In this document: piece after piece, positions 2,377-41,096 of the stretch
Numbering within the stretch: position 1 is the stretch's first letter
How the letters are laid out: every line of letters starts with the position of its first letter
Assembly: GCF_054482595.1 (NCBI RefSeq)
Contig: NZ_CM137008.1
Direction: 5' to 3' (one strand)
DNA length: 64,000 nucleotides
The notes under the pieces: model-generated
The model's database searches: none
What the model saw: the letters and a program-made list of their open reading frames with translations, nothing else
Told to the model about the DNA's origin: nothing
Position numbers and translations under genes: made by a program

Positions 2377-2385
2377 ACTCAAAAT

Positions 2386-2420: not shown

Positions 2421-2484
2421 AAAGAATCTTATTAATTCCCTGTTACTCTATAACTTCTTAATCACTTCATTGATGGTATTTTAT

Positions 2485-2721: not shown

Positions 2722-2732
2722 GGATGTTCACA

Positions 2733-3326: not shown

Positions 3327-3357
3327 TAATCCGAACACTGTCTGTTGTTCACTTTTT

Positions 3358-3398
3358 CAGGCGTCAGGCCCCCTTTCTGATGATGAAGCCTGACGCCA
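3358..3398. terminator. Bidirectional hairpin terminator between rclC and the convergent reductase gene
   Basis: Inverted repeat ggcgtcaggc...gcctgacgcc. Confidence 0.5.
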
Positions 3399-3485
3399 TA
3401 TTACCGGAGATATGACAGAGTGAAGATCAATATCACTCCCCTGTTAAAAGATTCTTGTCGTCTCAGGTAAAATACATGATTAATA

Positions 3486-4370
3486 TCAATCATGTATTTT
3501 TACAGCAAGACAACCACGAACAAATTCAGGATTAAAATGTTTTACCGACTCCCCAACATAACCCAAATCAAGCGAACTAATTTGTGCCATTTCTTTCTCT
3601 GTCAGTGAGAAATCCCAGATAGCAAAATTTTCTTCGATACGCTGTTGATGTGTCGATTTCGGAATAACGACCACTCCCCGTTGAATATTCCAACGCAGAA
3701 TGACTTGAGAAATCGATTTTTGATGGGCATCTGCAATACTCTGAAGCAGATTATTTTCAAAGGGTTTATGTCGTCCACCACCTAACGGAGCCCATGCTTC
3801 AGGCTGCACGTTATAATACTTCATGGTTGCCAGCGCCTCTGGTTGGGCAAAATAGGGATGCAACTCGACCTGGTTGACCATCGGTTTAACTCTTACCGTT
3901 TCACAAAAGTTCGCCAGAACATGAGGATAGAAATTGGAAACCCCAATCGCTTTTAATTTGCCCTCTTCATAGGCATCTTCGAGTGCACGCCACGCACTGA
4001 AATAATCGCGCATAGCCTGATGCAATAAATAGAGGTCGAAGTATTCTAGTCCCGATTTTTTTAATGATGCTTCAATACCTGCTGCTGCCGTATCCTGATT
4101 CAACATATCCTGCACCCACAATTTAGACGTTAAAAATAACTCTTCTCGGGTACATAAACCTTCGGATATAGCTTCACGAACGGCTTCACCGACGGCATCT
4201 TCATTACCGTATACCGCTGCAGTGTCGATGAGTCGATACCCCGTGCGGATAGCGTTCAACACTGACTGTTTGCACACGTTTTTATCGGTAACCTGAAAAA
4301 CACCAAATCCCATCATCGGCATTTTCAGATTGTTACTTAATACGGAAAATTCCACTGTCAGTCCCTCCAT
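3486..4370 (-). CDS. Aldo-keto reductase (DkgA-like)
   Basis: 294-aa ORF; AKR N-terminus (MPMMGFGVFQV...[13 protein letters not shown]); paralog of the ORF at 10394..11245. Confidence 0.85.
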   Translation of the reverse strand: MEGLTVEFSVLSNNLKMPMMGFGVFQVTDKNVCKQSVLNAIRTGYRLIDTAAVYGNEDAVGEAVREAISEGLCTREELFLTSKLWVQDMLNQDTAAAGIEASLKKSGLEYFDLYLLHQAMRDYFSAWRALEDAYEEGKLKAIGVSNFYPHVLANFCETVRVKPMVNQVELHPYFAQPEALATMKYYNVQPEAWAPLGGGRHKPFENNLLQSIADAHQKSISQVILRWNIQRGVVVIPKSTHQQRIEENFAIWDFSLTEKEMAQISSLDLGYVGESVKHFNPEFVRGCLAVKIHD

Positions 4371-10378: not shown

Positions 10379-13246
<2,868 letters not shown>

Positions 13247-13603
13247 CTATTATTTTAGCCACATTATTAGTAACAATGATAATCTGGCTGTATCGAAAAT
13301 AATTCTAAACTTTCAGGAGATTTATTATGAATAAACGTATCCTCACGATTGTGCCATTCTTCTTACCGATATTCTGACACATATCATCAATTTTCGAGTT
13401 TTACTCTTTTCTCCACCATAAAATCAATAAAAGCACGAACTTTAGAGGGCATTCTCATCCGTGATGAAACATAAATATAAAATCCAGGAAATGAAACAGC
13501 CCAATCCTCAAGAATCGGCTGTAACTTGCCCGCATTGATATGTTCAGCGATTGCAAAATCCAGATGTTGAATGATACCCGTTCCATTCAGCGTGGATTTG
13601 CCC

Positions 13604-14509
13604 CTATATTTCCAGACACCTGTTATCACTTAACCCATTACTGGCTTGCTGCCGTAGATATTCCCGTGGCGAGCGATAACCCAGTGCACTATGCGGATGC
13701 CATTCGTTATAATGCTCGAATGCCTCTGCAAGGTTCTTTGCTGCCGTTAACCCGTCTGGTTTGGGCATGACACTGATGTAGTCACGCTTTATCGTTTTCA
13801 CGAAGCTCTCTGCTATGCCGTTACTCTCCGGACTCCGCACCGCCGTGTTCTTCGGTTCAAGCCCCAACATCCGGGCAAACTGCCGTGTTTCATTAGCCCG
13901 GTAGCATGAACCATTATCCGTCAGCCACTCTACTGGAGACGCCGGAAGCTCGTTGCCGAAACGGCGTTCCACCGCTCCCAGCATGACGTCCTGTACTGTT
14001 TCACTGTTGAAGCCGCCCGTAGTGACCGCCCAGTGCAGTGCCTCACGGTCACAGCAGTCCAGCGCGAACGTGACTCGCAGTTTTTCTCCGTTATCACAGC
14101 GGAACTCGAACCCGTCAGAGCACCATCGCTGATTACTTTCTTTCACAGCCACTCTGCCGGTATGTGCCCGTTTCGATGGCGGTACAGCGGGTTTTCGCTC
14201 AAGCAACAGCGCATTCTGGCGCATGATCCGGTAAATACGTTTGGCATTGATCGCAGGCATACCATCAAGTTCGGCCTGTCTGCGAAGCAGCGCCCATACC
14301 CGACGATAACCATATGTGGGCAGCTCTCCGATAACATGGTGTATACGGAGAAGCACATCCGTATCATCTGAGTGACGGCTGCGGCGACCATCTTTCCAGT
14401 CATCGGTTCGTCTGAGAATGACGTGCAACTGCGCACGCGACACCCGGAGACAACGGCTGACTAAGCTTACTCCCCATCCCCGGGCAATAAGGGCGCGTGC
14501 GCTATCCAC
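13604..14509 (-). CDS. insD: IS2 transposase OrfB (InsD, DDE integrase)
   Basis: 301-aa [23 protein letters not shown]... near-identical to IS2 InsD from memory. Confidence 0.9.
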
Positions 14510-14832
14510 TTTTTTGCACGCCCGTATTCAACGGCTTCTTTAAGGAGTTCATTTTCCATCGTTTTTTTGCCGAGCAGGCGCTGGAGTTCTTTAATCTGCT
14601 TCATGGCGGCAGCAAGTTCAGAGGCAGGAACGACCTGTTCTCCTGCGGCCACAGCAGTAAGACTTCCCTCCTGGTATTGCTTGCGCCAGAGAAATAACTG
14701 GCTGGCTGCCACACCGTGTTGCCGGGCAACAAGGGAGACTGTCATTCCCGGTTCAAAACTCTGCTGAACAATAGCGATCTTTTCCTGTGTAGTACGCCGT
14801 CTGCGTTTCTCCGGTCCTAAGACATCAATCAT
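14467..14832 (-). CDS. insC: IS2 transposase OrfA (InsC, HTH)
   Basis: ORF 14467..14877; start at [22 protein letters not shown] (14832); overlaps insD as expected for the frameshift-coupled pair. Confidence 0.9.
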
Positions 14833-15805
14833 CTGCTCTCCAATGACTAGTCTAAAAACTAGTATTAAGACTATCACTTAAATAAGTGATATTGGTTGTC
14901 TGGAGATTCAGGGGGCCAGTCTACAGCGCCATTCGTATCATGCTTTCGTCATCATTAGAAATATACTTACCTGAAACCTCTATTTCGAACTCTTCATTAC
15001 CCCCCACAACATTAGAAAACTCCCATGCAGAGAGTGCACCGCTACTTTTATGCCGCAACCGAAGGCAATTATGGTTACTCAGTTCCTGAGGCGTTTCAGG
15101 AATACCGTGTTCTTTTAAATAATCTGGCGATGCCACAGTAACCAGTTTAATAAGCGGAGAAACAGGAACGGCAGTCATATGCTCATCCAGTCCTTGCTCA
15201 AGACGTATGCCCACATCACAGCCGTCCGCAATAATGTTAGATAAACCGTCATCCATAATGAGTTCTATCTTTGTTTTGGGGTAACGAGTAAGAAACTCGC
15301 CAATATGAGGCTCAACAAGCATCCGTGCTGCAACACGGGAGGAATTTATTCTCAACAGGCCTGTAGGTTCAAGTTGGGTATCACCAACATCTTTCAAAGC
15401 ATCATCAATTTGCCCCAAAGCCGACACCAGCACTTCATACAGACGCTGTCCTTCCTCAGTAAGCGACATATTGCGGGTCGTACGGTATATCAGCTTGGTG
15501 TTAAGACGTTCCTCAAGAGATTTTAAATTCTGGGACAATGCGGCCCGCGTAATACCCATTTCAGAAGCGGCTCTGGAAAAACTGCCGGCACGAACAATCA
15601 GCGCAAACCAGGCAAGAGAAGGCAAAATTGAAGGCTCTATTTTCATCATTGTAAACCTTAACTTAACACTGTGATAGATATTAGACCATTGATGATAACC
15701 AATACAAGTCATACTATTACGCCGTTCTCGATATGAACACGAATGCCAGTTGCGGATAATAGAAATGATATTTAAATCTGTTTAGGCAAATCCCCGGAGC
15801 TTGAA

Positions 15806-16726
15806 ATGAAAACTGTTTCGATAAAACACACTTACTGGGATATAGCTGCTGATATCTATTTCCCTGACGATTTTAATAGTGAAAAAAAGTATCCTGCCAT
15901 TATCAGCGCCCATCCAATTGGAAGCTGCAAAGAACAGACATCGGGTAGTGTGTATGGTGCCGCCCTGGCAAAAGCTGGCTTTATCGTCATTGCTTTTGAT
16001 GCCAGTTTTCAGGGAAGCAGCGGTGGGGAACCGCGTTATCTGGAAGATCCAACAATGCGAGTAAAAGACTTCAGCATTGTCGTTGATTACCTTACCAGCT
16101 TACCTTACGTTGATGCCGGGCGTATTGGTGTACTGGGTATTTGTGGTGGAGGTGGATATGCCATTAATGCCGCAATGACAGAACGTCGAATTAAAGCTAT
16201 TGGTACTGTCACGGGTGCAAACTACGGGCGTCTTATGCGTGAGGGATTTACAGCGTTTAATCCTATCGGAGCACTCGAAGCAATGGCGCAACAAAGAACA
16301 GACGAAGCTAACGGCGCAAAACTTCGCGTAGATGATTTACTCCCCTCTTCTCCGGATGCAGCTCTTGAAGCGGGATTAACAGAAATAGACCTTTTTGAAG
16401 CCACAGAATATTATCGTTCGCCACGAGGCTATGCACCTAATGGGGTAAATCGTTCGCTATTCTCACATCAGACTGTTGCCGTGGGTTGGGATGCATTTCA
16501 TCTTGCAGAAGTCCTGTTAACTCAACCAATAATGGTTGTGGTGGGCGATAGAGTGGGCGCATTTGGTGCCTACCGTGACGGCTGCGAAATTATTGGCCGC
16601 GCTGCTTCAAAACATAAAGAGCTGGTCGTGGTTGAAGGTTATTCACATTACGACCTGTATGATAAGCCAGAACCTGTGAAACAGGCACTCGATAAATTAA
16701 TTCCTTTTTATAAAACACATTTATAA
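15806..16726 (+). CDS. Alpha/beta hydrolase (dienelactone-hydrolase-like)
   Basis: 306-aa ORF; nucleophile-elbow-like LGICGGGG; paralogous to the secreted hydrolase at 35494..36630. Confidence 0.75.
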   Translation: MKTVSIKHTYWDIAADIYFPDDFNSEKKYPAIISAHPIGSCKEQTSGSVYGAALAKAGFIVIAFDASFQGSSGGEPRYLEDPTMRVKDFSIVVDYLTSLPYVDAGRIGVLGICGGGGYAINAAMTERRIKAIGTVTGANYGRLMREGFTAFNPIGALEAMAQQRTDEANGAKLRVDDLLPSSPDAALEAGLTEIDLFEATEYYRSPRGYAPNGVNRSLFSHQTVAVGWDAFHLAEVLLTQPIMVVVGDRVGAFGAYRDGCEIIGRAASKHKELVVVEGYSHYDLYDKPEPVKQALDKLIPFYKTHL

Positions 16727-16735
16727 TAATTTTAC

Positions 16736-16756
16736 AGGGAGATCCCTTATCTCCCT
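16736..16756 (+). terminator. Hairpin after the hydrolase gene
   Basis: agggagatcccttatctccct inverted repeat. Confidence 0.4.
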
Positions 16757-16960
16757 GACATTTATCCTTTATTGACTACACAACAATAATAAAATTACTC
16801 AAAAAGAAATTTCATTAAAAAACAAAAAAGCAGCAACTCAATTATTAGAAACACTTTAAAGGGATTATAAATAAAGCCAGAACTCTTGGTTCCAAAGCTG
16901 GCAACAACTAACCAGTTAAAACATTCGCATCAAAATCAGATAAACATTTGAGGTATTGTT

Positions 16961-18103
16961 ATGACAAATAAACACCCATCATTGTTTTCTCCTTTTATGC
17001 TGACAGAAAAAATAAAGCTACGTAATCGTATCGTTATGGCTCCTATGACGACCTGGTCAGCGAATCCTGATGGAACCATCTCTGAGCAAGAACTCGAATT
17101 TTATAAACGCCGCTCACAAAATGTTGGTTTAGTAATAACAGGATGTACCTATGTCACGCCAAGCGGCATTGGGTTTACTCATGAATTTGCCGCATATGAC
17201 GACCGTTTCATTAACAGCCTTGAAAAGTTAGCAGCGGCAGCCCAAAGTGGGGGTGCTCCGGCTATTTTGCAGATTTTCCACGCCGGTAATAAAGCCATCC
17301 CGGAGCTTGTACCAAATAACGATGTTATTAGTGCCAGCGCATCAAGCGTAAAAAATGGTGACTTTATGAAGAGAGTGGTACAAAGCAGGGAAATGACTGA
17401 AAACGAAATTCAGGAAACCATTAGAGCATTCGGAGATGTCACAAAAAGGGCGATTAAAGCAGGTTTTGATGGCATTGAACTTCATGGTGCGCACGGATTC
17501 CTTCTACAGAATTTCTTCTCCCCTCTATTTAACCAGCGTAATGACCGATGGGGAGGAGATCTCGAAGGACGTATGCGCTTCCCGCTGGCCGTATTACAGG
17601 AAGTAAAAAATGTAGTCTATGAATATGCGACAAAGCCCTTTGCCATCGGTTACAGAATATCTCCTGAAGAATCTGCAACAGGGGGGCTGCGGATAGAGGA
17701 TACTTATAAACTCCTTGATCGGCTCATTTCATCCGGTATTTCGTATATACATACCTCGCTGGTCAGTATTAACGATAGCTACCCTGTTGAGTCGCCAAAT
17801 GGCCCCCGAACTATTGAATTGATTTTAAATCATATTGCAGGCAGAGTGCCGGTAATCGCTGCAGGTAAAATACGCACACCGTCTCAGGCTCAAGAAGCAA
17901 TTTCCACTGGCCTGCCACTTGTTGCGATCGGTAAAGGGCTGGTGATAAATCCAGAATGGGTGACTTTAGCTGAATCAGGTAGAGGCCATGAAATTCAAAC
18001 AACCCTTAATCCACAACTTGTTCCTGAATTAACCATTCCGGATAAACTATGGGATCAAATTCAGGCATCGAAAGGAACTGGCTGGTTTCCGTTAATGGAT
18101 TAA
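16961..18103 (+). CDS. NADH:flavin oxidoreductase, Old Yellow Enzyme family
   Basis: 380-aa ORF; OYE-type TIM-barrel signatures (RIVMAPMTT, LQIFHAGNKA, GFDGIELHGAHGFLLQNFFSP). Confidence 0.8.
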   Translation: MTNKHPSLFSPFMLTEKIKLRNRIVMAPMTTWSANPDGTISEQELEFYKRRSQNVGLVITGCTYVTPSGIGFTHEFAAYDDRFINSLEKLAAAAQSGGAPAILQIFHAGNKAIPELVPNNDVISASASSVKNGDFMKRVVQSREMTENEIQETIRAFGDVTKRAIKAGFDGIELHGAHGFLLQNFFSPLFNQRNDRWGGDLEGRMRFPLAVLQEVKNVVYEYATKPFAIGYRISPEESATGGLRIEDTYKLLDRLISSGISYIHTSLVSINDSYPVESPNGPRTIELILNHIAGRVPVIAAGKIRTPSQAQEAISTGLPLVAIGKGLVINPEWVTLAESGRGHEIQTTLNPQLVPELTIPDKLWDQIQASKGTGWFPLMD

Positions 18104-18576: not shown

Positions 18577-18678
18577 ATGAAAGAGAATAAAGTACAACAA
18601 ATCAGTCATAAACTGATTAATATCGTTGTTTTTGTCGCAATTGTAGAATACGCCTATTTATTTCTCCATTTCTATTAA
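18577..18678 (+). CDS. ykgR: Small 33-aa membrane protein YkgR
   Basis: ATG 18577 to TAA 18676-18678; MKENKVQQISHKLINIVVFVAIVEYAYLFLHFY; not in ORF track (below size cutoff); degraded paralog at 37927. Confidence 0.6.
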   Translation: MKENKVQQISHKLINIVVFVAIVEYAYLFLHFY

Positions 18679-19007
18679 TAACGGCAATAAACTGTTCACT
18701 TCAGTGATATTTAAAATATGCATCCTCTCCCTTTTTGTAAGTAATTATTATATCCGTGGGAGAGGAATACACGCTGTCAGGTAATCAATCATACTGCGAT
18801 AAATCATCGGCCAGTAAAGTGGAGATAACCTCCATTCTCGAAAAATCCATACTCTCAGCGAAACTATCATCAATCACTCATCCAGGCGTTTATGGGAGCG
18901 TCGCCAATGGCTGTTAACAATGCCAGACTTCCCCGTTGCGGAAATTCCACATACCACTAATGGTCACAGGGATTGGGTGTTGAAATGATCCGGATGAGCA
19001 TGTATCT

Positions 19008-19305: not shown

Positions 19306-19445
19306 TGAAAGTCCTTAACTCTCTGCGTACCGCAAAAGAACGCCATCCAGACTGTCAGATTGTGAAGCGAAAAGGACGGCTGTATGTGATTTGTAAATCT
19401 AATCCACGTTTTAAGGCCGTTCAGGGTCGTAAGAAAAAACGTTGA
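19305..19445 (+). CDS. ykgO: 50S ribosomal protein L36 paralog (zinc-independent)
   Basis: 46-aa [46 protein letters not shown]; start overlaps the ykgM stop (ATGATG); not in ORF track. Confidence 0.9.
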
Positions 19446-19496
19446 TTTAAAATTCGACGAATTAACGATATTTGTCTGATTAATAATCAGACCGGA

Positions 19497-19535
19497 TTAA
19501 TGTTGGTGTATTTATTACACCAGCATTAATTTTCC
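19497..19535 (+). terminator. Rho-independent terminator after ykgM-ykgO
   Basis: ttaatgttggtgta...tacaccagcattaa hairpin followed by tttt; a second smaller hairpin at 19474-19493. Confidence 0.55.
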
Positions 19536-20460
19536 TGGGGATGTATCTTCCTGTTCATTTAAGGTCAACTGCCTGACGTTTCTCTCCGAATATTCCATTA
19601 TATTAATGTTGACTTGTTGACCAGCTTCGCCCCTGTATGCTGGCATCAACCCTCTTTTAGACTGAACACGCCACTCAGTTTCCTCCCTTTGCGACGCAGC
19701 CTGCATTTACACTCAAACTGTTAAGATGATAAATGTGGTAAATCTGTTGGTACTGACATAAAAACGTTTACGCCACAGGAACGGCCTGATCCACCGGTAA
19801 CCCCATCGCCGACGTTCGAGTGCCAGTTAGAGTAACGCGCACAGATAACTGCACTCAGTGCCCTGGCAAAGAGGCCATCGTTCCTGTGACAACTGGCAGT
19901 CTTCGTTTAACTTCACTTAATTTGGCTCTTAGGGGGCTTACCGGACAGATGAAATACTTACACCTGTTTAATTTTTCATCACTTATTGGGATGAACACCC
20001 ATAACCATTTTGTGCGGCATGTTAATCCATTAAAACACCTTACTGATTGGCAAATCATCTTTAATTATGACTCATGATAGTTTTATATTCTATTTCTTAT
20101 CATTTAAACTTGTTTTTTTACTAGTCCATTACACAACACATTAAGACTATTCCTAACACCTCAGGGCAAAGTTCCTGGCTAATATAAAATGCAAGTAAGA
20201 ATTGAACGATATATTGCCAATAACCTTATGAAACTGAATGTCTTTTTCTTCTTATCAAAAAAGCAATATTTTCATTTTTTGTAAATATTGACTTAACCAT
20301 GGAATTCCTTTTTCGTTCACATATTGACACTGATCGGGAAAAAAACATAAATTTAAGCCCAATCGAAAATAATTAAACTTAATCTCGTTTAACCTATATT
20401 GATATGTGCTACGTATCTTATTTACTTCCGATTTACTAAAGAAACTGAATGTACCTGTAA

Positions 20461-28826: not shown

Positions 28827-29243
28827 ATCTACCCTGCTTGTACCATTATGTTATACACCTCTTTAGGAGTATTCATAAAACAAGGCGAATGTAAAGAACT
28901 GTATTGTTTTGTATAACAAGATGGTTGTCTAATCGCCAAAGAATATAAGCACCATCATTTCTCCCTATTTTTATATTAGAAGTGACATAGATTTGCAGGG
29001 TGATGCAGAGCTGACAATCACAGGTTTCCTTATCGGTTTTTGCATCGTACAACTCAAGCAATAAACCAGCTCCCATCATCATCAACATCCCGGCGAACAT
29101 GAATTTATTAGCCGGGCTCATAGCTGCATTCGCGTTTTAAGAATAATCCTCCTGCTGTCGCCGACTATGCTTAACGTTTAAAAAAGCATCAGCACTCTCG
29201 CAACGCACTCTTATTTTCCCCTTTAGAATACCGGAGGCCTGGT

Positions 29244-29933
29244 ATGAGCAACCAAGGCGAATACCCCGAAGATAATCGGGTTGGGAAGCACGAGCCGCAC
29301 GATTTTAGTTTGACCCGTCGCGATCTGATTAAAGTGAGCGCCGCAACGGCGGCGACCGCCGTGGTTTATCCTCATTCTACGCTTGCGGCAAGCGTTCCGG
29401 CAGTTACACCCGCGCCAGAGATAATGCCCCTGACACTTAAGGTGAACGGCAAAACCGAGCAGCTTGAGGTGGATACCCGAACCACGCTACTGGACGCTTT
29501 GCGTGAAAATCTGCATTTGATCGGTACCAAGAAAGGTTGCGATCACGGACAGTGCGGAGCCTGTACCGTGCTGGTCAATGGTCGCAGGCTTAATGCCTGC
29601 CTGACGCTTGCAGTCATGCATCAGGGGGCCGAGATCACCACCATTGAAGGCCTGGGTTCACCAGATAATCTTCACCCCATGCAGGCGGCCTTTATCAAGC
29701 ATGATGGCTTCCAGTGCGGCTACTGCACCTCCGGGCAAATTTGCTCATCAGTAGCGGTGCTAAAAGAGATTCAGGACGGCATTCCCAGTCACGTCACGGT
29801 CGATTTGGTTTCCCCTCCAGAAAGAACTGCCGATGAGATCCGTGAACGTATGAGCGGCAACATCTGTCGCTGTGGTGCATACGCTAACATCCTTGCCGCC
29901 ATTGAAGACGCTGCGGGGGAGATAAAATCATGA
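29244..29933 (+). CDS. paoA: Periplasmic aldehyde oxidoreductase 2Fe-2S subunit PaoA
   Basis: 229-aa ORF; Tat signal ([20 protein letters not shown]); two [2Fe-2S] Cys clusters ([19 protein letters not shown]). Confidence 0.9.
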
Positions 29934-30886
29934 AGGCGTTTACCTATGAACGAGTGAACACCCCGGCCGAGGCGGCACTTAGCGCTCAGCGCGTACCCGG
30001 CGCAAAATTTATCGCGGGCGGGACCAATCTGCTGGACCTGATGAAGCTGGAAATTGAAACGCCCACCCACCTTATCGATGTGAACGGGCTCGGGCTCGAT
30101 AAGATTGAAGTGACCGACGCGGGTGGGCTGCGCATCGGCGCACTGGTACGGAACACCGACCTGGCGGCTCACGAGCGCGTGCGTCGTGATTACGCGATAC
30201 TCTCCCGCGCCCTGCTCGCTGGCGCGTCTGGTCAGTTACGCAATCAGGCAACCACCGCAGGTAATCTGCTCCAGCGCACGCGCTGCCCCTATTTTTACGA
30301 CACCAATCAGCCCTGCAATAAGCGCCTGCCCGGGAGCGGCTGCGCGGCGCTTGAAGGCTTTAGCCGTCAGCACGCGGTGGTAGGCGTAAGCGAAGCCTGC
30401 ATTGCCACCCATCCGAGCGATATGGCGGTCGCAATGCGGTTGCTGGATGCGGTGGTGGAAACCATCACGCCGGAGGGAAAGACTCGCAGTATCACACTGG
30501 CTGATTTTTATCACCCACCGGGGAAAACGCCGCACATTGAAACCGCCCTGCTTCCCGGTGAGCTTATCGTTGCGGTGACGTTACCTCCGCCGCTCGGCGG
30601 AAAACATATTTACCGTAAGGTGCGCGATCGCGCCTCCTACGCCTTTGCCCTGGTATCGGTCGCGGCGATTATTCAGCCTGACGGCAGCGGGCGCGTCGCG
30701 CTGGGCGGAGTAGCACATAAGCCCTGGCGCATTGAGGCTGCGGATGCTCAACTATCCCAGGGGGCGCAGGCCGTATATGACGCGCTGTTCGCCAGCGCCC
30801 ATCCCACCGCTGAAAACACCTTTAAACTCCTGTTGGCGAAGCGAACGCTTGCCTCCGTACTGGCTGAAGCGAGGGCACAAGCATGA
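29930..30886 (+). CDS. paoB: Aldehyde oxidoreductase FAD-binding subunit PaoB
   Basis: 318-aa ORF; FAD-binding CO-dehydrogenase-medium-subunit-like; translationally coupled to paoA and paoC. Confidence 0.9.
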
Positions 30887-33081
30887 AATTTGATAAACCC
30901 GCAGGGGAAAACCCGATCGATCAGCTGAAGGTTGTCGGTCGTCCCCATGACCGCATCGACGGACCGCTGAAAACTACCGGCACGGCACGCTACGCCTACG
31001 AATGGCATGAAGAATCCCCCAACGCCGCCTATGGCTATATCGTCGGTTCCGCCATTGCCAAAGGACGCCTCACCGCCCTTGATACGGACGCCGCGCAAAA
31101 AGCGCCGGGCGTACTGGCTGTCATTACCGCCAGTAACGCCGGGGCACTCAGTAAAGGCGACAAAAACACCGCCAGGCTGTTAGGCGGCCCCACTATTGAG
31201 CACTATCATCAGGCCATTGCGCTGGTAGTGGCCGAGACCTTCGAACAGGCGCGAGCGGCGGCCTCGCTGGTGCAGGCGCACTATCGCCGTAATAAAGGAG
31301 CTTACTCCCTGGCGGACGAAAAACAGGCCGTCAGTCAGCCGCCGGAAGACACGCCCGACAAAAACGTCGGTGACTTTGACGGGGCTTTCTCCTCCGCTGC
31401 GGTGAAGATTGATGCTACCTACACGACCCCGGATCAGAGCCATATGGCGATGGAGCCGCATGCCTCGATGGCCGTCTGGGATGGAAATAAGCTTACTCTC
31501 TGGACCTCAAATCAGATGATTGACTGGTGCCGCACCGATCTGGCAAAAACGCTGAAAGTGCCCGTGGAGAATGTGCGTATTATCTCCCCGTATATCGGCG
31601 GAGGGTTTGGCGGCAAGCTGTTCCTGAGAAGCGATGCGCTGCTGGCAGCCCTCGCCGCCCGAGCGGTGAAACGTCCGGTTAAAGTGATGCTCCCCCGCCC
31701 CACTATTCCCAATAACACCACGCACCGCCCCGCCACCCTTCAGCACTTGCGTATCGGTGCCGACCAGAGCGGGAAAATCACCGCTATCTCACATGAAAGC
31801 TGGTCCGGAAACCTGCCCGGCGGCACGCCGGAAACGGCGGTACAGCAAAGCGAATTACTCTACGCCGGGGCAAACCGTCATACCGGCCTGCGGCTCGCCA
31901 CGCTTGATTTGCCGGAAGGGAACGCCATGCGTGCGCCCGGCGAAGCCCCCGGTCTGATGGCGCTCGAAATCGCGATCGACGAACTGGCGGAAAAAGCGGG
32001 CATCGATCCCGTCGAGTTTCGCATCCTGAATGACACTCAGGTTGACCCCGCCGACCCGACGCGCCGCTTCTCTCGCCGTCAGCTTATCGAGTGCTTGCGC
32101 ACCGGAGCGGATAAATTTGGCTGGAAGCAGCGCAACGCCACACCCGGACAGGTGCGCGACGGGGAGTGGCTGGTCGGCCACGGTGTTGCGGCGGGCTTTC
32201 GCAATAATCTGCTGGAAAAATCGGGTGCTCGGGTTCACCTCGAACAAAACGGCACCGTTACCGTAGAAACGGACATGACCGACATTGGCACCGGCAGCTA
32301 CACCATTCTGGCCCAGACGGCAGCGGAAATGCTTGGCGTACCGCTGGAGCAGGTTGCGGTTCACCTCGGCGATTCCAGTTTCCCGGTTTCTGCGGGTTCT
32401 GGTGGACAATGGGGCGCGAATACCTCCACCTCCGGCGTTTACGCCGCCTGTATGAAGCTTCGCGAAATGATTGCCTCGACAGTCGGGTTTGATCCTGAGC
32501 AGTCGCAGTTTGCCGACGGCAAGATTACCAACGGTACCCGAAGCGCCACGCTACATGAGGCCACCGCAGGCGGCAGACTGACAGCGGAAGAGAGCATTGA
32601 ATTCGGAACACTGAGCAAGGAGTACCAGCAGTCGACCTTTGCCGGGCATTTTGTGGAGGTCGGCGTGCATAGCGCGACGGGAGAAGTTCGGGTCCGGCGT
32701 ATGCTCGCTGTGTGTGCTGCAGGACGCATCCTGAATCCGAAAACTGCACGCAGCCAGGTCATTGGCGCAATGACTATGGGCATGGGCGCGGCACTGATGG
32801 AGGAGCTGGCGGTGGATGACCGTTTGGGCTACTTCGTTAATCACGATATGGCGGGGTATGAGGTGCCGGTCCATGCGGATATCCCAAAACAGGAGGTGAT
32901 TTTCCTGGATGATACCGACCCCATATCCTCCCCGATGAAGGCCAAAGGTGTCGGTGAGCTGGGCCTGTGCGGCGTGAGCGCGGCTATCGCCAACGCGGTG
33001 TATAACGCCACCGGTATTCGGGTACGGGATTATCCCATCACTCTGGATAAGCTGCTCGATAAGCTGCCGGATGTGGTTTAA
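30883..33081 (+). CDS. paoC: Aldehyde oxidoreductase molybdopterin subunit PaoC
   Basis: 732-aa ORF; xanthine-dehydrogenase-family molybdopterin-binding domains. Confidence 0.9.
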
Positions 33082-33090
33082 GGAGGAACA

Positions 33091-34047
33091 ATGTCATACC
33101 CGCTTTTTGACAAAGACGAACACTGGCATAAGCCAGAGCAGGCGTTTCTCACCGATGACCACCGGACCATTCTGCGCTTCGCCGTAGAGGCGCTAATGTC
33201 CGGTAAAGGAGCGGTGCTGGTGACGCTGGTGGAGATACGCGGCGGCGCGGCGCGCCCGCTCGGGGCGCAGATGGTGGTGCGCGAAGATGGTCGTTACTGC
33301 GGTTTTGTCTCTGGCGGCTGCGTGGAGGCCGCTGCCGCTTTTGAAGCGCTGGAGATGATGGGCTCAGGCTGCGAACGCGAAATTCGCTATGGCGAAGGTT
33401 CGCCGTGGTTTGACATCGTTCTGCCCTGCGGCGGTGGGATCACGCTGACGCTCCATAAACTACGCTCGGCACAGCCTCTGCTCGCCGTGCTGAACCGCCT
33501 GGAACAGAGAAAACCGGCGGGGCTGCGCTACGATCCGCAAGCACAATCGTTGGTGTGCCTGCCCACGCAAACCCGAACGGGCTGGAATCTCAATGGCTTT
33601 GAGGTGGGGTTCAGGCCATGCGTCAGGCTGATGATTTACGGACGTTCTCTTGAGGCGCAGGCAACCGCGAGTCTTGCAGCAGCCACAGGCTATGACAGCC
33701 ATATCTTCGATCTTTTTCCGGCCTCAGCCAGCGCTCAGATCGATACCGATACGGCGGTCATTTTGCTGTGCCATGATCTCAACCGAGAGCTGCCAGTGTT
33801 GCAGGCCGCGCGAGAGGCAAAACCCTTTTATCTCGGCGCATTGGGCAGCTATCGAACCCACACGTTACGTCTGCAAAAGCTCCACGAGCTGGGATGGTCC
33901 AGGGAGGAGACAGCGCAAATCCGGGCACCCGTCGGGATATTTCCCAAAGCCCGGGATGCGCATACTCTGGCACTCTCCGTGCTGGCAGAAGTCGCCTCTG
34001 TACGTCTCCATCAGGAGGAGGATTCATACCTGCCCCCGTCGTCCTGA
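33091..34047 (+). CDS. paoD: XdhC-like molybdenum-cofactor insertion chaperone PaoD
   Basis: 318-aa ORF downstream of paoC. Confidence 0.85.
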   Translation: MSYPLFDKDEHWHKPEQAFLTDDHRTILRFAVEALMSGKGAVLVTLVEIRGGAARPLGAQMVVREDGRYCGFVSGGCVEAAAAFEALEMMGSGCEREIRYGEGSPWFDIVLPCGGGITLTLHKLRSAQPLLAVLNRLEQRKPAGLRYDPQAQSLVCLPTQTRTGWNLNGFEVGFRPCVRLMIYGRSLEAQATASLAAATGYDSHIFDLFPASASAQIDTDTAVILLCHDLNRELPVLQAAREAKPFYLGALGSYRTHTLRLQKLHELGWSREETAQIRAPVGIFPKARDAHTLALSVLAEVASVRLHQEEDSYLPPSS

Positions 34048-34224
34048 TCCTTGCGGCCGGGCGTGGGAAGCGCTTTCTCACCTCCGGGGAAATACCATAA
34101 ATTAAGAGAAAAATCTGCAGTAGCCGTTTTAGAAAATCACCTAAATCGTTTAAAAGAGCGCCCTACCCATAGTGGGTGCTCATCGCCTTGTGTAACTTAT
34201 TCAGCAACGCGCGCCCTCGCCGGA

Positions 34225-35418
34225 CTAAAGCGCACCGGCCTTCTGGCGTGCGGTAACAAAGGTCAGTACGCCCGCGCAAAGGAGCAGCACACTACTCATG
34301 GCAAACGTACTCTGCCAGCCAAGGCGGTCAAACACGATGCCTCCTGCCGTTGATCCAAGGGCGATTGAGAGCTGAATCACCGCGACCATGAGACCGCCTC
34401 CGGCTTCGGCGTTGTCAGGCAACGTACGCGCAATCCATGTCCACCATCCGGTTGGCGCGGCGGTGGCCAGCATGCCCCAGAGTCCTAACAGCAGCGAGAC
34501 CGTCCAGACGTGATGCCCGGTAAGCATCAGACCGATGGCAATGACGGCCATCAGTCCGGGTATGGCCATCAGCGTGGGGTAGAATTTTCTGTTGAGAAAT
34601 GTCGAAACAACCAGCGTGCCAATAAAACCGGCCACGCCGATAATCAGCAAAATCAACGACAAGCCTAAGGAATTAACCCGTGTCACCGACTCCAGAAACG
34701 GGCGCACATAGGTGAATAGCGCAAACTGCCCCATGAAAAACAGGCCACAAGCTATCATGCCGACCACAACCATGCGGCGGCTAAATAAGCGGAATACCGC
34801 GCCACATGACGTGTGGCTTTTATTCGCATCCATGCTGGGCAGACTAATGCACTGCCAGATAAAGGCGACAACCGCCATGGGCACCAGGCACAAGAAAGCG
34901 CCTCGCCATCCGACCGTAGCCCCCAGATAGCTTCCCAGCGGCGCGGCCACGACCGTCGCCAGCGCATTACCGGCGTTGAAAATCGCCAGCGCACGCGTGA
35001 CCTGATGCTGCGGCACCAGACGAATCGCCGTTGCCGCTGACATAGACCAGAATCCGCCAATGGCCACACCAATCATCGCACGACCGACCATATACATCAG
35101 ATAACTGGTAGCCAGCGCAATAATAAGCCCCGATACGGCCATCAGAACCGTCATCCCCAGCAGCAGGAACTTACGATTCATCTTTCCAGCTAGCGTTGAA
35201 AGCGTCAGGCTGGTCAGAACCGCCAGCGCACCGGAGATAGCAATCCCCTGCCCTGCAAGCCCCTCCGTCACGCCTAAATCGCGGGTAATCGGCGTGAGCA
35301 GGCTGACGGGCATAAATTCAGAAGCAATCAGCACAAACACGCACAGGGTCATGGCAAAAATACCGCCCCAGTATGCGCGCTGATGATGAGGTGATAGTGT
35401 TTGGCTTAGTGTCGACAT
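34225..35418 (-). CDS. MFS transporter (12-TM)
   Basis: 397-aa ORF; highly hydrophobic, MFS-like loop motifs. Confidence 0.8.
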   Translation of the reverse strand: MSTLSQTLSPHHQRAYWGGIFAMTLCVFVLIASEFMPVSLLTPITRDLGVTEGLAGQGIAISGALAVLTSLTLSTLAGKMNRKFLLLGMTVLMAVSGLIIALATSYLMYMVGRAMIGVAIGGFWSMSAATAIRLVPQHQVTRALAIFNAGNALATVVAAPLGSYLGATVGWRGAFLCLVPMAVVAFIWQCISLPSMDANKSHTSCGAVFRLFSRRMVVVGMIACGLFFMGQFALFTYVRPFLESVTRVNSLGLSLILLIIGVAGFIGTLVVSTFLNRKFYPTLMAIPGLMAVIAIGLMLTGHHVWTVSLLLGLWGMLATAAPTGWWTWIARTLPDNAEAGGGLMVAVIQLSIALGSTAGGIVFDRLGWQSTFAMSSVLLLCAGVLTFVTARQKAGAL

Positions 35419-35493
35419 AGTGAAATTTCACAAAGATCAGGATAAAAGCCACCAGCCTATGGCCGGTGGCTTTGCATCAATTCAGGAGAGGTT

Positions 35494-36630
35494 TTATTTC
35501 AGTTTGGTCTGGAAAAATTGTTCGAACTTCGCGAAAGGTATTTTTCCGGCCACGTTATCGTACAGGTCCACGTGATTTGCCCCTGGTACCACCACCAACT
35601 CTTTGTCTTTACTGCCAACCGCCTTGTAAGCATCTTCAGCAAAATAGCGTGAATGCGCTTTCTCACCGGTCACAATCAGCGTCGGGATGGTGATTTCACT
35701 GGCGTATCTCAACAGCGGCATATTCATAAATGACAGCGGCATCGTTGCCGTCCACGCCCCGGTAGAGTTAACGGAACGTTCGTGGAAGCCGCGCGGCATG
35801 CGATAGTAGTCAAAGAACTCTTTCAGTACCGGATGAGGATTTGCCGGCAGCGTTTCTGGCAGAATGCGCTCGCCCGCACTGACCTTGCCGTTGCTGTCGA
35901 CATTAATATCATGACCACCGTGAGCAAACGTTCCGCTCTGCGCATCCTTCCAGCGCTGTTCATTCAGATATTGCAGAACAGCACGACGGTCGGCGGTAGA
36001 ATAACGGTCTTTGCCATCCCCCACACCATGACCCATCGCCCGGCTCATGTCATACATCACGCTGGTAGCTACCGCTTTAACGCGGGTATCCATCGCCACG
36101 TCGTTCAGCGCCATGCCGCCCCAGCCACAAATACCGAGCAGCCCGATACGGTTGCGGTCTACCTCTTTTTGCAGCCCTAAGAAATCCACCGCCGCGCTGA
36201 AATCTTCAGTGTTGATATCCGGTGAGGCGACGTTTCGCGGATAGCCGCCGCTTTCCCCGGTGTAAGAAGGATCGAACGCCAGGGTAACAAACCCTCGTTC
36301 CGCCAGCGTCTGCGCATACAGGCCGCTGGATTGCTCTTTCACCGCGCCAAATGGCCCACTGACCGCAATCGCCGCCAGCTTGCGATCGCCACGGTCTTTA
36401 GGCAGGTAAAGATCGCCCACTAAGGTGATGCCATATCGGTTCGGGAACGAGACTTTACGGTGATCGACTTTCTGGCTCTCGGCGAACGTTTTATCCCATT
36501 TATCTGTCATGGACACAGGGGCATTAGGATTGGTTGAATCAGCATAACTCATTGTCGTGACTCCACTTAATGATGCGAAAAGCAGCATGGTCGGCATCGC
36601 GGTTTTTAGCGTTCGGGTGAAGGCTTTCAT
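35494..36630 (-). CDS. Secreted alpha/beta hydrolase (dienelactone-hydrolase-like)
   Basis: ORF 35494..36651; signal peptide MKAFTRTLKTAMPTMLLFASLSGVTTMSYA; LGICGWGG nucleophile elbow; paralog of 15806..16726; 75 bp upstream of the MFS gene. Confidence 0.75.
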   Translation of the reverse strand: MKAFTRTLKTAMPTMLLFASLSGVTTMSYADSTNPNAPVSMTDKWDKTFAESQKVDHRKVSFPNRYGITLVGDLYLPKDRGDRKLAAIAVSGPFGAVKEQSSGLYAQTLAERGFVTLAFDPSYTGESGGYPRNVASPDINTEDFSAAVDFLGLQKEVDRNRIGLLGICGWGGMALNDVAMDTRVKAVATSVMYDMSRAMGHGVGDGKDRYSTADRRAVLQYLNEQRWKDAQSGTFAHGGHDINVDSNGKVSAGERILPETLPANPHPVLKEFFDYYRMPRGFHERSVNSTGAWTATMPLSFMNMPLLRYASEITIPTLIVTGEKAHSRYFAEDAYKAVGSKDKELVVVPGANHVDLYDNVAGKIPFAKFEQFFQTKLK

Positions 36631-36816
36631 AAAAATCCCCATAAAAAACAACAGAGAGATACAGGTTTCCGACGGACAACGCTGCGGTGCTTTACTTTGA
36701 TGGGGTCATTATAGTGAGCAGAATTAGTGCTGATTAGGGGGCGATTAATGCTAAGATTAATACCATATTGTTATAAATTAATGCGGAGATTGCCGGCATG
36801 AAGGGGGGATGTTTCA

Positions 36817-37701
36817 ATGGCGAAAAGGGAGAACTACAACGAGCTGTACCTGTTTATGCAGGTGGTGCGGGAAGGCAGCTTTACCGCAGCGGCTCAGCGG
36901 CTGGGTCTTGCTCAGTCAGGAGTCAGCCGTTCTGTTCGCGAGCTTGAAGAAAGGCTGGGTGTCCAGCTGCTAGTGCGCACCACGCGTAAACTGTCGCTGA
37001 CACAAGCAGGCGAGCAGCTCTACCAGAAGACGGCATCTGGATTTGAAATGTTAGATCTTGGGCTTGCCACACTGGCGCACTATCGAGAGACGCCCTCCGG
37101 CACGGTGCGTATCAATGCCAGCCAGCACGCGATTGATAAATGCCTGCTGCCAAAGCTGGCGGTATTTAAACAGCGATATCCTGATATCCGGCTTGAACTG
37201 ATAAATGAGAGCCGGTTCGTCGATATCATCGAGGAAAGATTCGATGCAGGTGTCCGCCTGGGGCCTGAAGTCGGCCAGGGTATGGTCGCGGTACGCATCA
37301 CGCCCGATATGGAGATGGCAATTGTGGGGACTCCGGAACATTTTCGTCGCTATGGTTTTCCGCAAACTCCGGCGGATTTAAAGGCGCATCCCTGTATCGC
37401 CTATCAGTTTGCCGACGGCAGCGTATACCAGTGGGAACTCAATCAGGATGATAAAAAAATCACTCATCGCCCTGAAGGACAATGGGCCCTATCCGACAGC
37501 TATATGGAAGCAGAAGCCGCCCGGCTGGGCCTCGGATTGGCCTATGTTCCTGTTGAACTGGTCGCGGATGATTTAGAACACGGTAAGCTTATCAGGGTGT
37601 TGCAGCGTTACAGCCTGCGAATGGAGGGATTGTTTCTCTATTACCCTCATCGCAACGTCTCCCCCGCCCTGCGGATGGTCATTGATACATTGAAAATCTG
37701 A
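36817..37701 (+). CDS. LysR-family transcriptional regulator
   Basis: 294-aa ORF divergent from the hydrolase-MFS pair; HTH FTAAAQRLGLAQSGVSRSVRELEERLGVQLLVRTTR. Confidence 0.85.
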   Translation: MAKRENYNELYLFMQVVREGSFTAAAQRLGLAQSGVSRSVRELEERLGVQLLVRTTRKLSLTQAGEQLYQKTASGFEMLDLGLATLAHYRETPSGTVRINASQHAIDKCLLPKLAVFKQRYPDIRLELINESRFVDIIEERFDAGVRLGPEVGQGMVAVRITPDMEMAIVGTPEHFRRYGFPQTPADLKAHPCIAYQFADGSVYQWELNQDDKKITHRPEGQWALSDSYMEAEAARLGLGLAYVPVELVADDLEHGKLIRVLQRYSLRMEGLFLYYPHRNVSPALRMVIDTLKI

Positions 37702-37926
37702 ACGTTAATAACGACCGACTCTTCACTGTGCAAAATTGTGTCAGGTAATCCCTCTGCGTTCAATTCCAGGGTCTGCTTTGAGCGAGAAAGATCAGACTTA
37801 TCTGTACAAGGGGACTATCCAGCAATGGAGATCATCCAAAAGAAAAAACCACCTGGCTCCCCTCGACAACCTTAATCCGGGCATTTAGCCTCAATCAACA
37901 TTTTCATATCTGTCAGGTTACTTCAT

Positions 37927-38200
37927 TATGAAAACCGATCAATATCGTTGTTTTTGTTGCAACAGTAGAATACGCGTATTTATCCCTCCATTTCTATTAA
38001 TAACGGCAATAAACTGTTCATTTCACTGATATTTAAAATATGCATCCTTTTCAAGCTGTTCAGCGGCATAAGAAAACGTATTAAATATGAATTCGACGAT
38101 TTAACCATTTCTGTCTGATTGGTAATCATCTGTGATTAATGCTGGTCTATTGATTACGCCAGCATTAACCGCTTAGGGATGTATTCTTCCTGTTGATATA
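37927..38200 (+). repeat. Degraded paralog of the ykgR-ykgM-ykgO locus
   Basis: 37940-38040 aligns to 18625-18725 (about 90% identity by eye); 38050-38085 resembles the last codons of ykgO; 38090-38200 resembles the terminator region 19450-19560; the ykgR-like frame is disrupted. Confidence 0.6.
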
Positions 38201-38403
38201 CAGCCCTCGAAAAAGAGAGAAAATAAAACTGTGTCCAATATTACTCTACCACTCCAGACCGAAGCATCGGTAGAATTAGCAGAACGACTGGTACAATAGA
38301 TTGGGATAGCGTCATTTGTCAGGTATTCCATTGCCTGACAAATGACAATTTTGAGTCAATAGACGTGCTTCTTGATCATGTCTTAAAAATTATACCATGA
38401 GCC

Positions 38404-38676
38404 TTATGAAGCATCATTTTTACTGACTGGTGTTAATTTTGCTATCATATAAACTCTGTTCTTAAAAAACGCGCCCAGAATTTTATATGATTTCCCTTGT
38501 TTTTCTGCCTGTAAAGAAATTTCTTTTTCAGTGCTGTCAATGGTTGAACCGACGGCAGTAATCGTTTTGGCGACGCTACTGAATGATAATAAAGACAGTG
38601 TAACAACAACAATTAAAGAACAGATAGTATTCACGCTAATTCTCCTGACAATTGAGAGGATGAGTTTTATATACAT
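38404..38676 (-). CDS. Small secreted DUF1471 (BhsA/YdgH-like) protein
   Basis: 90-aa ORF; hydrophobic signal segment then motif TIDSTEKEISLQAEKQGKSYKI typical of the family; compare rclB. Confidence 0.55.
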   Translation of the reverse strand: MYIKLILSIVRRISVNTICSLIVVVTLSLLSFSSVAKTITAVGSTIDSTEKEISLQAEKQGKSYKILGAFFKNRVYMIAKLTPVSKNDAS

Positions 38677-38846
38677 AGGTATTAAACATGAGTCATATTT
38701 ACCCCAAGAGAAAATACTCCTTCTGTAATTAAACCTTCATCTCCTTCGGGGTGAGCAATACATAATACATCTTGCTATGAAAACACAGGGATATATAAAT
38801 CTTCCTTCTGACCTATTTAATAAAACGTGAATGTAAAAATTATTCT

Positions 38847-39088
38847 TCAGTTTGCAGATGCAGTGGGTCTGATGGTAATTTCGGTTGTATCAACGCTTTC
38901 GGGAGATTCAATAATATGCCTTACAGCACGGGCAATATCCGCGGGTTGAAGTGCAACAGAACGGTAGGCGTCCATTGCCTTCATGGTTTCCACATGGGTA
39001 ATGGTTGAAGCCAGTTCACTTTCGACAACGCCAGGATTTACGCAGGTCACACGGATTTTCGAGCTTTCTTGCCGTAAGCCATCAGAAA
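38847..39088 (-). pseudogene. 3' fragment of a short-chain dehydrogenase/reductase gene
   Basis: Frame encodes only an SDR-like C-terminal tail (NPGVVESELA...TEITIRPTASAN); the N-terminal Rossmann part is absent and its position is occupied by the next fragment. Confidence 0.45.
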
Positions 39089-39091
39089 TAG

Positions 39092-39526
39092 CCCGTACTG
39101 CAAATCAGGCAGCGTGAAATGGTCGTTGCCTCTCCCTCCTATCTCGCAGCCAACAGCACACCTGTTCATCCGCGTGAACTTGTGAATCATAAGTGTATCG
39201 GCTGGCGTCAATCCCCGGATGTTGCGCCTTATCGCTGGCCATTTGAAGAAAACAGGAGAGCTTTCGACCTTGCGATTGAACCGCAGATTACGACTAATGA
39301 TCTGCGTCTGATGTTGAGGCTGGCTCTTGCCGGCGGAGGAATAACAATTGCCACTCAGGAAACTTTCAGGCCATATATTGAAAGCGGTAGGCTTGTATCT
39401 CTGCTTGATGACTTTCTTCCACAATTTCCGGGCTTCTATCTGTATTTCCCACAGCGTCGCAATATTGCACCAAAGCTCCGCGCCCTGATTGACCACGTCA
39501 AGGAATGGCGGCAGCAATTGGCTTAA
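39092..39526 (+). pseudogene. 3' fragment of a LysR-family regulator gene (effector domain only)
   Basis: Open frame from 39092; encodes MVVASPSYLA...FPGFYLYFPQRR (LysR C-terminal domain) with no HTH; abuts the SDR fragment head-to-head. Confidence 0.6.
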
Positions 39527-39652
39527 ATGTCTGCACCTGCATTGCCTGATGTCAGAACAGTATTTTGATTAATTGCCAGGGTTACAATGGCATAAATACG
39601 GCACAGGAGGAAACGTGGTGTATTTGAATATGGGGTAACTACTTGATTTAAA

Positions 39653-39728
39653 TGGTGCCGATAATAGGAGTCGAACCTACGACCTTCGCATTACGAATGC
39701 GCTGCTCTACCAACTGAGCTATATCGGC
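39653..39728 (-). tRNA. thrW: tRNA-Thr (anticodon CGT)
   Basis: Reverse complement GCCGATATAGCTCAGTTGGTAGAGCAGCGCATTCGTAATGCGAAGGTCGTAGGTTCGACTCCTATTATCGGCACCA; cloverleaf with CGT anticodon and CCA end. Confidence 0.9.
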
Positions 39729-39842
39729 CCTGAAAGGACATGTTCACGAACGTGAATCACGGTGGACAAGGTTAAAACTAACCGGGCGATGCGTCAATGG
39801 CCTTGTGAATCAAACGGCTACTTTTGCATCACCCGGTTTTAT

Positions 39843-41096
39843 TTACGCACGAATGGTGTAATCACCAATGCCGATCCACTTGTAAGTGGTCAGTGCTTCC
39901 AGCCCCATTGGGCCACGCGCGTGGAGTTTTTGTGTGCTTACCGCCACTTCCGCACCCAGTCCAAACTGGCCGCCGTCGGTAAAACGCGTAGAGGCGTTAA
40001 CGTAAACAGCGGACGAATCCACTTCGTTAACAAAACGCTGGGCGTTGCGCATATCGCGGGTCAGGATCGCATCGGAGTGTTGTGTGCCGTGTTCACGAAT
40101 ATGGGCGATGGCATCGTCAAGATCGCTGACGATTTTGACGTTCAAATCTAATGACAGAAACTCATCGTCATACTCTTCAGCTTTAACCGCCACCACCTTC
40201 GCAGGGCCTGCCTGCAACTGTGTCAGCGCAGCTGCATCTGCGTGTAATGTCACGCCGCTTTCCGCCATTTGTTTGCTTAATGCGGGCAGGAAGCTATCGG
40301 CGATGTTTTTATTCACCAGCAACGTTTCTACCGTATTACATGTGCTCGGACGCTGAGTTTTCGCGTTGACGATCACTTTTAATGCTTCAGCGATCTCTGC
40401 ACTTTCATCAACGTAAATATGGCATACGCCTATACCACCAGTGATCACCGGGATCGTCGACTGTTCACGGCACAGTTTATGCAAACCAGCGCCACCACGC
40501 GGGATCAGCATGTCGATGTATTTATCCATACGCAGCATTTCACTGACCAGCGCACGGTCAGGATTATCAATCGCCTGCACGGCACCCGCCGGTAAGCCAC
40601 AGGATTTCAGGGCGTCCTGAATCACCGCTACCGTTGCCGCGTTAGTGCGACAGGTTTCTTTGCCACCACGCAGGATCACCGCATTACCGGTTTTCAGGCA
40701 CAGCGAAGCGACATCAACCGTCACGTTCGGGCGCGCTTCATAAATCACGCCAATAACCCCCAGCGGTACGCGACGACGCTCAAGACGCAGGCCGCTGTCC
40801 AGTACGCCGCCATCGATTACCTGCCCCACCGGATCGGCGAGGTTACACACCTGGCGTACATCGTCGGCAATGCCTTTCAGCCGTGCGGGCGTCAGTGCCA
40901 GACGGTCAAGCATCGCTTCGCTAAGGCCATTGGCTCGCGCGTCAGCAACATCCTGGGCGTTAGCGTTGAGGATGATTTCGCTTTGTGCTTCCAGTTCATC
41001 GGCGATTTTTTCCAGCACGCGATTTTTTTCGCGGCTGGAGAGTTGCGCTAATTTATACGAGGCTTGCTTCGCGGCAATGCCCATTTGTTCCAGCAT
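39843..41096 (-). CDS. proA: Gamma-glutamyl phosphate reductase
   Basis: 417-aa ORF recognised as ProA. Confidence 0.9.

Follow-up and report, generated by a model that had tools for sequence, protein, structure and literature searches.

Gene content of the paoD-thrW interval

We analyzed a window of 64,000 nucleotides (contig NZ_CM137008.1 of assembly GCF_054482595.1) and focused on the interval that lies between paoD, which ends at position 34047, and thrW, the gene for tRNA-Thr(CGT). ARAGORN placed thrW, the sole tRNA gene of the window, on the minus strand at 39653-39728; past it the gene order is proA, proB, phoE. From paoD onward, the interval (34048-39652) holds genes for a major facilitator superfamily (MFS) transporter and an alpha/beta hydrolase, a divergently oriented gene for a LysR-type regulator (LysR1), an AT-rich spacer, and the 3' parts of two further genes, one for a short-chain dehydrogenase/reductase (SDR) oxidoreductase and one for a second LysR-type regulator (LysR2). 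Escherichia coli XH990 (NZ_CP019359.1) matches the window at 100% identity from 33900 to 39800. An initial annotation, made from the letters of the window, had listed this inventory correctly: the RefSeq annotation of the XH990 stretch agrees with it, all of the genes and fragments it named carry RefSeq annotation, and the span between paoD and thrW comes to 5,605 bp. The components are all of known kinds and already annotated, and the interval is ordinary accessory E. coli DNA.

The interval is a mosaic. Its three parts each have their own history and differ in composition and distribution; they are a 3.6-kb cassette of the MFS, hydrolase and LysR1 genes, the spacer, and the SDR/LysR2 pair. 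The GC fraction is 0.54 in the cassette and 0.36 in the spacer, as compared with 0.59 in the pao genes, 0.55 in proBA and 0.50 in the window as a whole. The initial annotation had taken the interval for an old, eroded remnant of a small island at the 3' end of thrW, lying there in place of a prophage. In our judgment it is probably a variable chromosomal flank beside an unoccupied thrW site, consisting of the cassette, the spacer and an SDR/LysR2 pair that was cut by a deletion.

Deletions in the SDR/LysR2 pair

Both genes closest to thrW lack their N-termini. The SDR fragment, on the minus strand at 38847-39105 (38847-39104 in RefSeq), consists of the last 85 codons of a gene whose intact orthologue encodes 240 amino acids, and the LysR2 fragment, on the plus strand at 39106-39526 (39107-39526 in RefSeq), comprises the last 139 codons, from the substrate-binding part of a protein that has 299 amino acids when intact. 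In strain 2013C-4465, the intact SDR gene faces an intact LysR2 gene over a 98-bp intergenic region; the 240-amino-acid SDR and an intact LysR2 are also encoded in SCU-316 and 88-3493. Alignment of the window with 2013C-4465 left one clean gap of 1,041 bp at the junction 39105|39106, which is blunt and without microhomology. Strain 88-3493, which has a fully intact interval and an empty attachment site (attB) at thrW, gave the same breakpoints; its interval differs from that of the window by this loss only and is otherwise collinear. The 1,041 bp cover about 155 SDR codons, the 98-bp intergenic promoter region, and about 160 LysR2 codons, including those for the DNA-binding domain.

The two fragments are pseudogenes of two separate genes and stem from one lineage-specific deletion. 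A blunt event in the lineage of the window removed both 5' ends along with the promoter region that the pair shared. The initial annotation had described two head-to-head gene fragments with no room for either N-terminus, which are indeed real pseudogenes, but it had placed their junction at about 39090 rather than at 39105|39106. The possibility that they are parts of one mis-framed gene is ruled out, as the two are on opposite strands and an intact orthologue of each exists in other genomes.

In strain 88-3493 and in O145:H28 and O157:H7-like strains, the gene content and order of the interval are those of the window, at 98% identity, and XH990 and 88-3493 share one accession for the MFS protein. 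Unlike the window, these strains keep the intact SDR (240 amino acids) and LysR2 (299 amino acids), and the O157-like strains additionally hold an island at thrW, which the window does not. We counted arrangements in 5,426 complete genomes by a megablast coverage threshold. The junction of the window was present in 24 of them, and an intact LysR2 gene stood directly beside an empty thrW in 39. The initial annotation had stated that conservation of this exact arrangement as ancestral backbone in most relatives would refute an island, and here the answer was divided: the exact form found in the window is rare, but its undeleted version is parental.

A far more common arrangement, whose junction was found in 2,684 genomes, is that of BL21 and K-12, in which window position 34100 is joined to 39188 at a 5-bp CATAA microhomology. 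The corresponding deletion amounts to 5,087 bp in window coordinates and to 6,128 bp when measured against the intact form. Because a LysR2 gene without its N-terminus is retained, the BL21/K-12 form must derive from the full form, and since it did so by loss of the 5,087 bp, the K-12 pseudogene yagP is the scar of this separate deletion. The thrW locus of K-12 occupies the same chromosomal site as that of the window, and yagP is orthologous to the 420-bp LysR2 fragment described here. K-12 and BL21 keep 339 bp of LysR2, whereas the truncation in the window lies 82 bp further upstream and belongs to a different and smaller deletion. The two loci also differ in that K-12 has the prophage CP4-6 at thrW, while the window is without a prophage and retains 5.1 kb lost in K-12. 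The K-12/BL21 arrangement thus arose from the intact form, which measures 6.65 kb and is still extant, by a deletion at the microhomology that was independent of the one in the window.

In strain FCI48, a third deletion, separate from the other two, took 2,047 bp. Each of the three deletions (window, K-12/BL21 and FCI48) has one end within the same 190-bp stretch of LysR2, at 39106-39295, and in all three the 5' end of the SDR gene has been lost. This clustering of deletion ends could reflect either recurrent inactivation or a local deletion hotspot. The undeleted form is the source of the window, of K-12/BL21 and of at least one other deletion variant. Two further genomes differed in other ways. 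In 2022N21-074-17, all that lies beyond a ykgR fragment in the spacer has been replaced by an AbiE/reverse-transcriptase island, and in the O157:H7 strain F6667 an IS1203-family transposase is annotated in the region and two SDR features are listed.

Mobility of the cassette and use of the thrW site

Only positions 34208-37786 of the interval are common to other genera and to plasmids. We took the bounds of the cassette from a comparison with Kluyvera genomosp. 1, which matched exactly this stretch at 91.7% nucleotide identity within unrelated flanks. The cassette was about 75-79% identical in Enterobacter, in Hafnia and in an isolate named 'Escherichia sp.', with neither pao nor proA nearby, and all three genes were carried at about 73-75% identity by plasmids of Klebsiella, Kosakonia, Salmonella and Pantoea. 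On the Salmonella IncFIB plasmid pSAbAus-trunc, the cassette lies beside tnpA and tnpR of the Tn3 family. The cassette is therefore a self-contained mobile unit that travels on plasmids and not with a tRNA-targeting integrase. In a separate observation, 33 E. coli genomes (FDAARGOS_1260 and strain 3908 among them) had a second hydrolase-LysR pair, 78% identical, at another chromosomal position and with no MFS gene.

Within E. coli, 912 of the 5,426 genomes (17%) carried the cassette, at 97.7-100% identity. So limited a distribution, and the fact that E. coli C, which we take to belong to phylogroup A, carries the cassette while K-12 does not, would suit a recent import of the cassette-bearing interval into a few lineages by homologous recombination in its flanks, with the short K-12/BL21 form being the older one. 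We regard this as very improbable. K-12 and BL21 keep a yagP without an N-terminus, joined at the microhomology downstream of paoD, and a LysR2 gene truncated in this manner must have come from a form with the intact gene. Moreover, the divergence of the cassette among E. coli genomes resembles that of the flanking genes.

We also examined how thrW itself is used. The gene is listed among the most frequently used tRNA gene targets of integrating elements (PMC7545054), and it is occupied in 2013C-4465 and K-12, so the initial annotation was right to call it an integration hotspot that is empty here. The core of attB is the 3' end of thrW, extending over 39653-39669 for the O157-type element and up to 39704 for CP4-6. 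This site is unoccupied in the window, where 126 bp separate the end of the LysR2 fragment from the 3' end of thrW; yagP and thrW were contiguous, leaving the site empty, in 947 of the 5,426 genomes, with the genome of the window included. The O157-like strain 2013C-4465 is homologous to the window as far as 39669, 17 nt into thrW, and an island comes next; the partial tRNA copy at the end of the homology is TGGTGCGATAATAGGA. The K-12-type order is paoD, the 339-bp LysR fragment, a partial thrW 3' end with homology to the window up to 39704, and then intF, yagN, yagM and yagL of CP4-6. Since homology ends within thrW in both strains, the crossover site is the 3' end of the tRNA gene, and elements that use thrW insert between thrW and the interval. 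The interval consequently does not stand in place of a prophage, as had been suggested; in 2013C-4465 and K-12 the inserted element lies between it and thrW.

No sign of entry through thrW was found in the interval. No integrase is annotated in it, and a tblastn search with IntF returned nothing there below E = 0.9. The sole match to a PHROG 'integrase' family was weak (E = 0.0048) and fell on a small open reading frame (ORF) in the spacer that resembles DUF1471 proteins; we judged it to be spurious. A repeat of the thrW 3' end was likewise not found elsewhere in the window, at the distal boundary of the interval or otherwise, when we allowed as many as 3 mismatches over 17-25 nt or 5 over 25 nt; the true attR of 2013C-4465 is readily visible. 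These relaxed searches uphold the earlier observation that neither an integrase nor a repeat of the tRNA end is present. Among the variants that we compared, none had a presence/absence boundary at an att site, and all were deletions with their ends in LysR2, in SDR or in the spacer. The islands PAI III536, Vat PAI and SHI-O and the prophage CP4-6 share the thrW neighborhood with the interval (PMC7545054). Islands and prophages at thrW carry an integrase, however, and are flanked by the tRNA gene and a partial repeat of it, and the interval has neither.

A broader absence was seen in a genome of phylogroup B2. Clone D i14 lacks window positions 28988-39650, a block that includes paoABCD; in its place, between thrW and yagU, is a Vat autotransporter island that abuts the region 160 bp upstream of yagU, and the junction beside yagU has an integrase fragment. 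We considered that pao might have been lost in B2 by a deletion starting inside a CP4-6-like integrase, but this was unsupported, as the fragment is unrelated to IntF. A probe for the BL21 junction, made of the 3' end of paoD and the adjoining segment of yagP, had no match in about 2,085 genomes, a number that is consistent with absence of the pao block being common, although these genomes were not checked one by one. A second B2 candidate, E. coli F11, was dropped. In that strain the thrW island runs straight into the hyc/hyp formate hydrogenlyase region, which indicates a large chromosomal rearrangement ending in the island and makes the strain uninformative.

The 5.6 kb, possibly together with paoABCD, could still be an old, eroded thrW island that has lost its integrase and distal att site, with newer elements inserting on the tRNA side of it. 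The interval does adjoin a proven hotspot (PMC7545054), 82% of the genomes have no contiguous yagP-thrW, the distribution of the interval is accessory, its GC content is atypical, and a B2 genome is without the whole 10.7-kb block from yagU to thrW. We nevertheless consider such an origin unlikely. Neither integrase similarity nor an att repeat appeared even at relaxed thresholds, and the interval is put together from pieces that differ in composition and distribution. The one unit that is demonstrably mobile is the 3.6-kb cassette, which moves on plasmids and was once found beside Tn3 genes, and the structural variants are internal deletions that end in genes rather than excisions at att. What stands of the island remnant proposed in the initial annotation is that the interval is accessory, eroded and beside an empty hotspot; the signs of a remnant integrated at thrW are absent.

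Several points weigh against our preferred reading of a variable chromosomal flank. An older island can be displaced from its tRNA gene by later insertions, so that the position of attB is indecisive when taken alone. The composition of the pao genes, the cassette and the spacer is atypical when set against the 0.50 of the window, and clone D i14, the one usable B2 genome, lacks paoABCD along with the interval. No recognizable insertion scar of the cassette was found in E. coli. The genome counts are tallies that were not mapped onto a phylogeny, and the locus was compared in its genomic context in E. coli genomes only, which bears on whether it is ancestral or acquired. Finally, what we propose below on how the cassette is regulated, which reaction it performs and which way it transports is inferred from sequence.

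The spacer and the predicted functions of the cassette

Within the spacer (37787-38846) lie the small DUF1471-like gene and a copy, now decayed, of the ykgR region. What the initial annotation had called a ykgR-like repeat can be refined to a decayed partial duplicate, on the plus strand at 37932-38200, in which the 3' part of ykgR is fused to sequence from downstream of ykgO and from which ykgM and ykgO are missing. Its ykgR fragment (37932-38000, plus strand) is annotated by PGAP/RefSeq as a ykgR pseudogene. The copy is in direct orientation and lies 19 kb away from the original, which occupies 18.6-19.6 kb of the window; positions 37932-38048 are 91% identical to 18610-18726, and 38048-38200 are 75% identical to 19409-19561, the end of ykgO and its downstream sequence. 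Because it includes sequence homologous to the final 37 nt of ykgO, the duplicate came from a copy that once had ykgM and ykgO. Near the original, between fdeC and ykgR, the window has another accessory-looking cluster (11730-18103) with genes for two aldo/keto reductases, two LysR regulators, an alpha/beta hydrolase and a flavin oxidoreductase; the B2 genome has this cluster too.

The small gene in the spacer, on the minus strand at 38404-38682, is a hypothetical protein in RefSeq and would encode an exported DUF1471-like protein of 92 amino acids (YdgH/BhsA/McbA). The DUF1471 call of the initial annotation is marginal by Pfam (PF07338, E = 0.076, 13.5 bits, residues 40-71), but it gains support from 38% identity over 68 amino acids (E = 7e-14) to WP_322499985.1, a YdgH/BhsA/McbA-like protein of a Salmonella plasmid. 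This homology spans the mature length, and a signal peptide is present. Plasmid pSAbAus-trunc has a DUF1471 gene between its LysR and hydrolase genes, the product of which is 38% identical to the 92-amino-acid ORF; no DUF1471 gene was found beside the hydrolase in 80 loci from other genomes. At 38311-38346 there is an inverted repeat of 15 pairs with a 6-nt loop, a putative terminator without an Rfam match, which overlaps the start of a 52-amino-acid ORF on the minus strand. In a permissive Rfam scan of 33500-40500, the tRNA was the only find apart from one opposite-strand match on the tRNA that was far below the gathering score, and a promoter scan gave no excess over the shuffled expectation.

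The hydrolase of the cassette belongs to the PA2218/YcjY family and is similar over its full length to the proteins in PDB entries 2HDW (PA2218, E = 1e-124) and 5XB6 (YcjY, E = 1e-43). RefSeq annotates its gene on the minus strand at 35494-36552, which gives 352 amino acids. An ATG at 36630 has a GGGGA Shine-Dalgarno sequence 5 nt upstream, and starting there (35494-36630, 378 amino acids) adds 26 codons that encode a Sec signal peptide ending SYA|D, which the RefSeq start omits. Given these features, the Sec, Tat or lipoprotein signals carried by most homologues, and the annotation of a plasmid orthologue at 375 amino acids, the RefSeq start is probably too short. The initial annotation had called the hydrolase secreted, which fits the protein that starts at 36630 and does not fit the one that starts at 36552; the enzyme is predicted to be periplasmic.

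The nucleophile elbow of the hydrolase contains GIC, within the motif GICGWGG; 2HDW and 5XB6 have GIC there as well. In an alignment of 81 sequences, Cys142 (numbered from the RefSeq start), His327 and several Asp residues were at least 97% conserved, and these residue positions, as opposed to a comparison of structures, suggest a Cys/His/Asp triad. Dienelactone hydrolases also have a Cys at the elbow with a conserved His and Asp. Their overall similarity to the hydrolase is marginal, however, the Pfam DLH model matching weakly (E = 0.007) over the elbow, and the classical motif of these enzymes is GYCLGG. No demonstrated substrate was found for any member of the PA2218/YcjY family, PA2218 and YcjY included, which agrees with the initial annotation, where no substrate was assigned.

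The nearest described system is that of PgrR (YcjZ) in K-12, a LysR-type regulator whose regulon includes the divergent hydrolase gene ycjY and which has been linked to the recycling of peptidoglycan peptides (PMC5934670). The hydrolase of the cassette is a paralogue of YcjY that shares the GIC motif and is likewise paired with a LysR gene. It is, however, much nearer to PA2218 and has a signal peptide; its linked gene is that of an MFS protein and not mpaA, and the best family for its regulator is YafC and not PgrR. By analogy with YcjY, peptidoglycan recycling may be considered as a lead.

LysR1 (36817-37701, plus strand, 294 amino acids) is a full-length regulator that matches LysR-family models end to end; its nearest family, YafC, scored below the cut-off. 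Its gene diverges from that of the hydrolase, with 186 bp between the two ATGs. This putative control region (36631-36816) contains three ATTAAT hexamers and a TATAAT -10 element, and the block with these repeats and the TATAAT is conserved from E. coli to Aeromonas (alignment A2). The MFS gene (34225-35352 in RefSeq, minus strand) has the purine ribonucleoside efflux pump NepI as its best NCBIfam match, at 282 bits to NF007578, below the cut-off of 584. We propose that LysR1 would sense a small molecule and activate the hydrolase and MFS genes, that the hydrolase would be exported via Sec and, once in the periplasm, would use its Cys/His/Asp triad to break an ester, lactone or amide bond, and that the MFS protein would then move the substrate or the product through the inner membrane.

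The hydrolase has counterparts of 54-67% identity in Proteobacteria, Bacteroidota, Firmicutes, gut Melainabacteria and a methanogen, and the LysR, hydrolase and MFS genes are linked in many Proteobacteria. We also examined its neighbors in the 80 loci from other genomes. A LysR gene was present in 27 and an MFS gene in 23; outside the Enterobacteriaceae, 23 loci encoded a secreted cupin that scored above the cut-off of the NCBIfam (R)-mandelonitrile lyase model. In 22 loci, the neighbor was a 156-amino-acid protein with no NCBIfam match, which we presume to be cyclophilin-like. Acetyltransferases, aldo/keto reductases and SDRs were found as well, and none of these neighbors points to a specific substrate. 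It is conceivable, though we think it unlikely, that the cassette is an uncharacterized and widely exchanged module whose substrate may be a common ester, lactone or amide, from the environment or from a host, of no assigned enzyme family and that, separately, the repeated, independent truncation of SDR and LysR2 could reflect selection against the pair rather than neutral decay.

Beyond bookkeeping, the significance of the locus is small. The analysis corrects a probable start-codon error in the RefSeq annotation of the hydrolase, and it flags a conserved family of periplasmic Cys hydrolases with solved structures as a reasonable target for biochemistry. For E. coli, it explains the origin of K-12 yagP as the scar of a deletion that took the SDR/LysR pair and the mobile cassette, and it shows that the DNA beside the thrW hotspot decays via nested internal deletions and not by excision.

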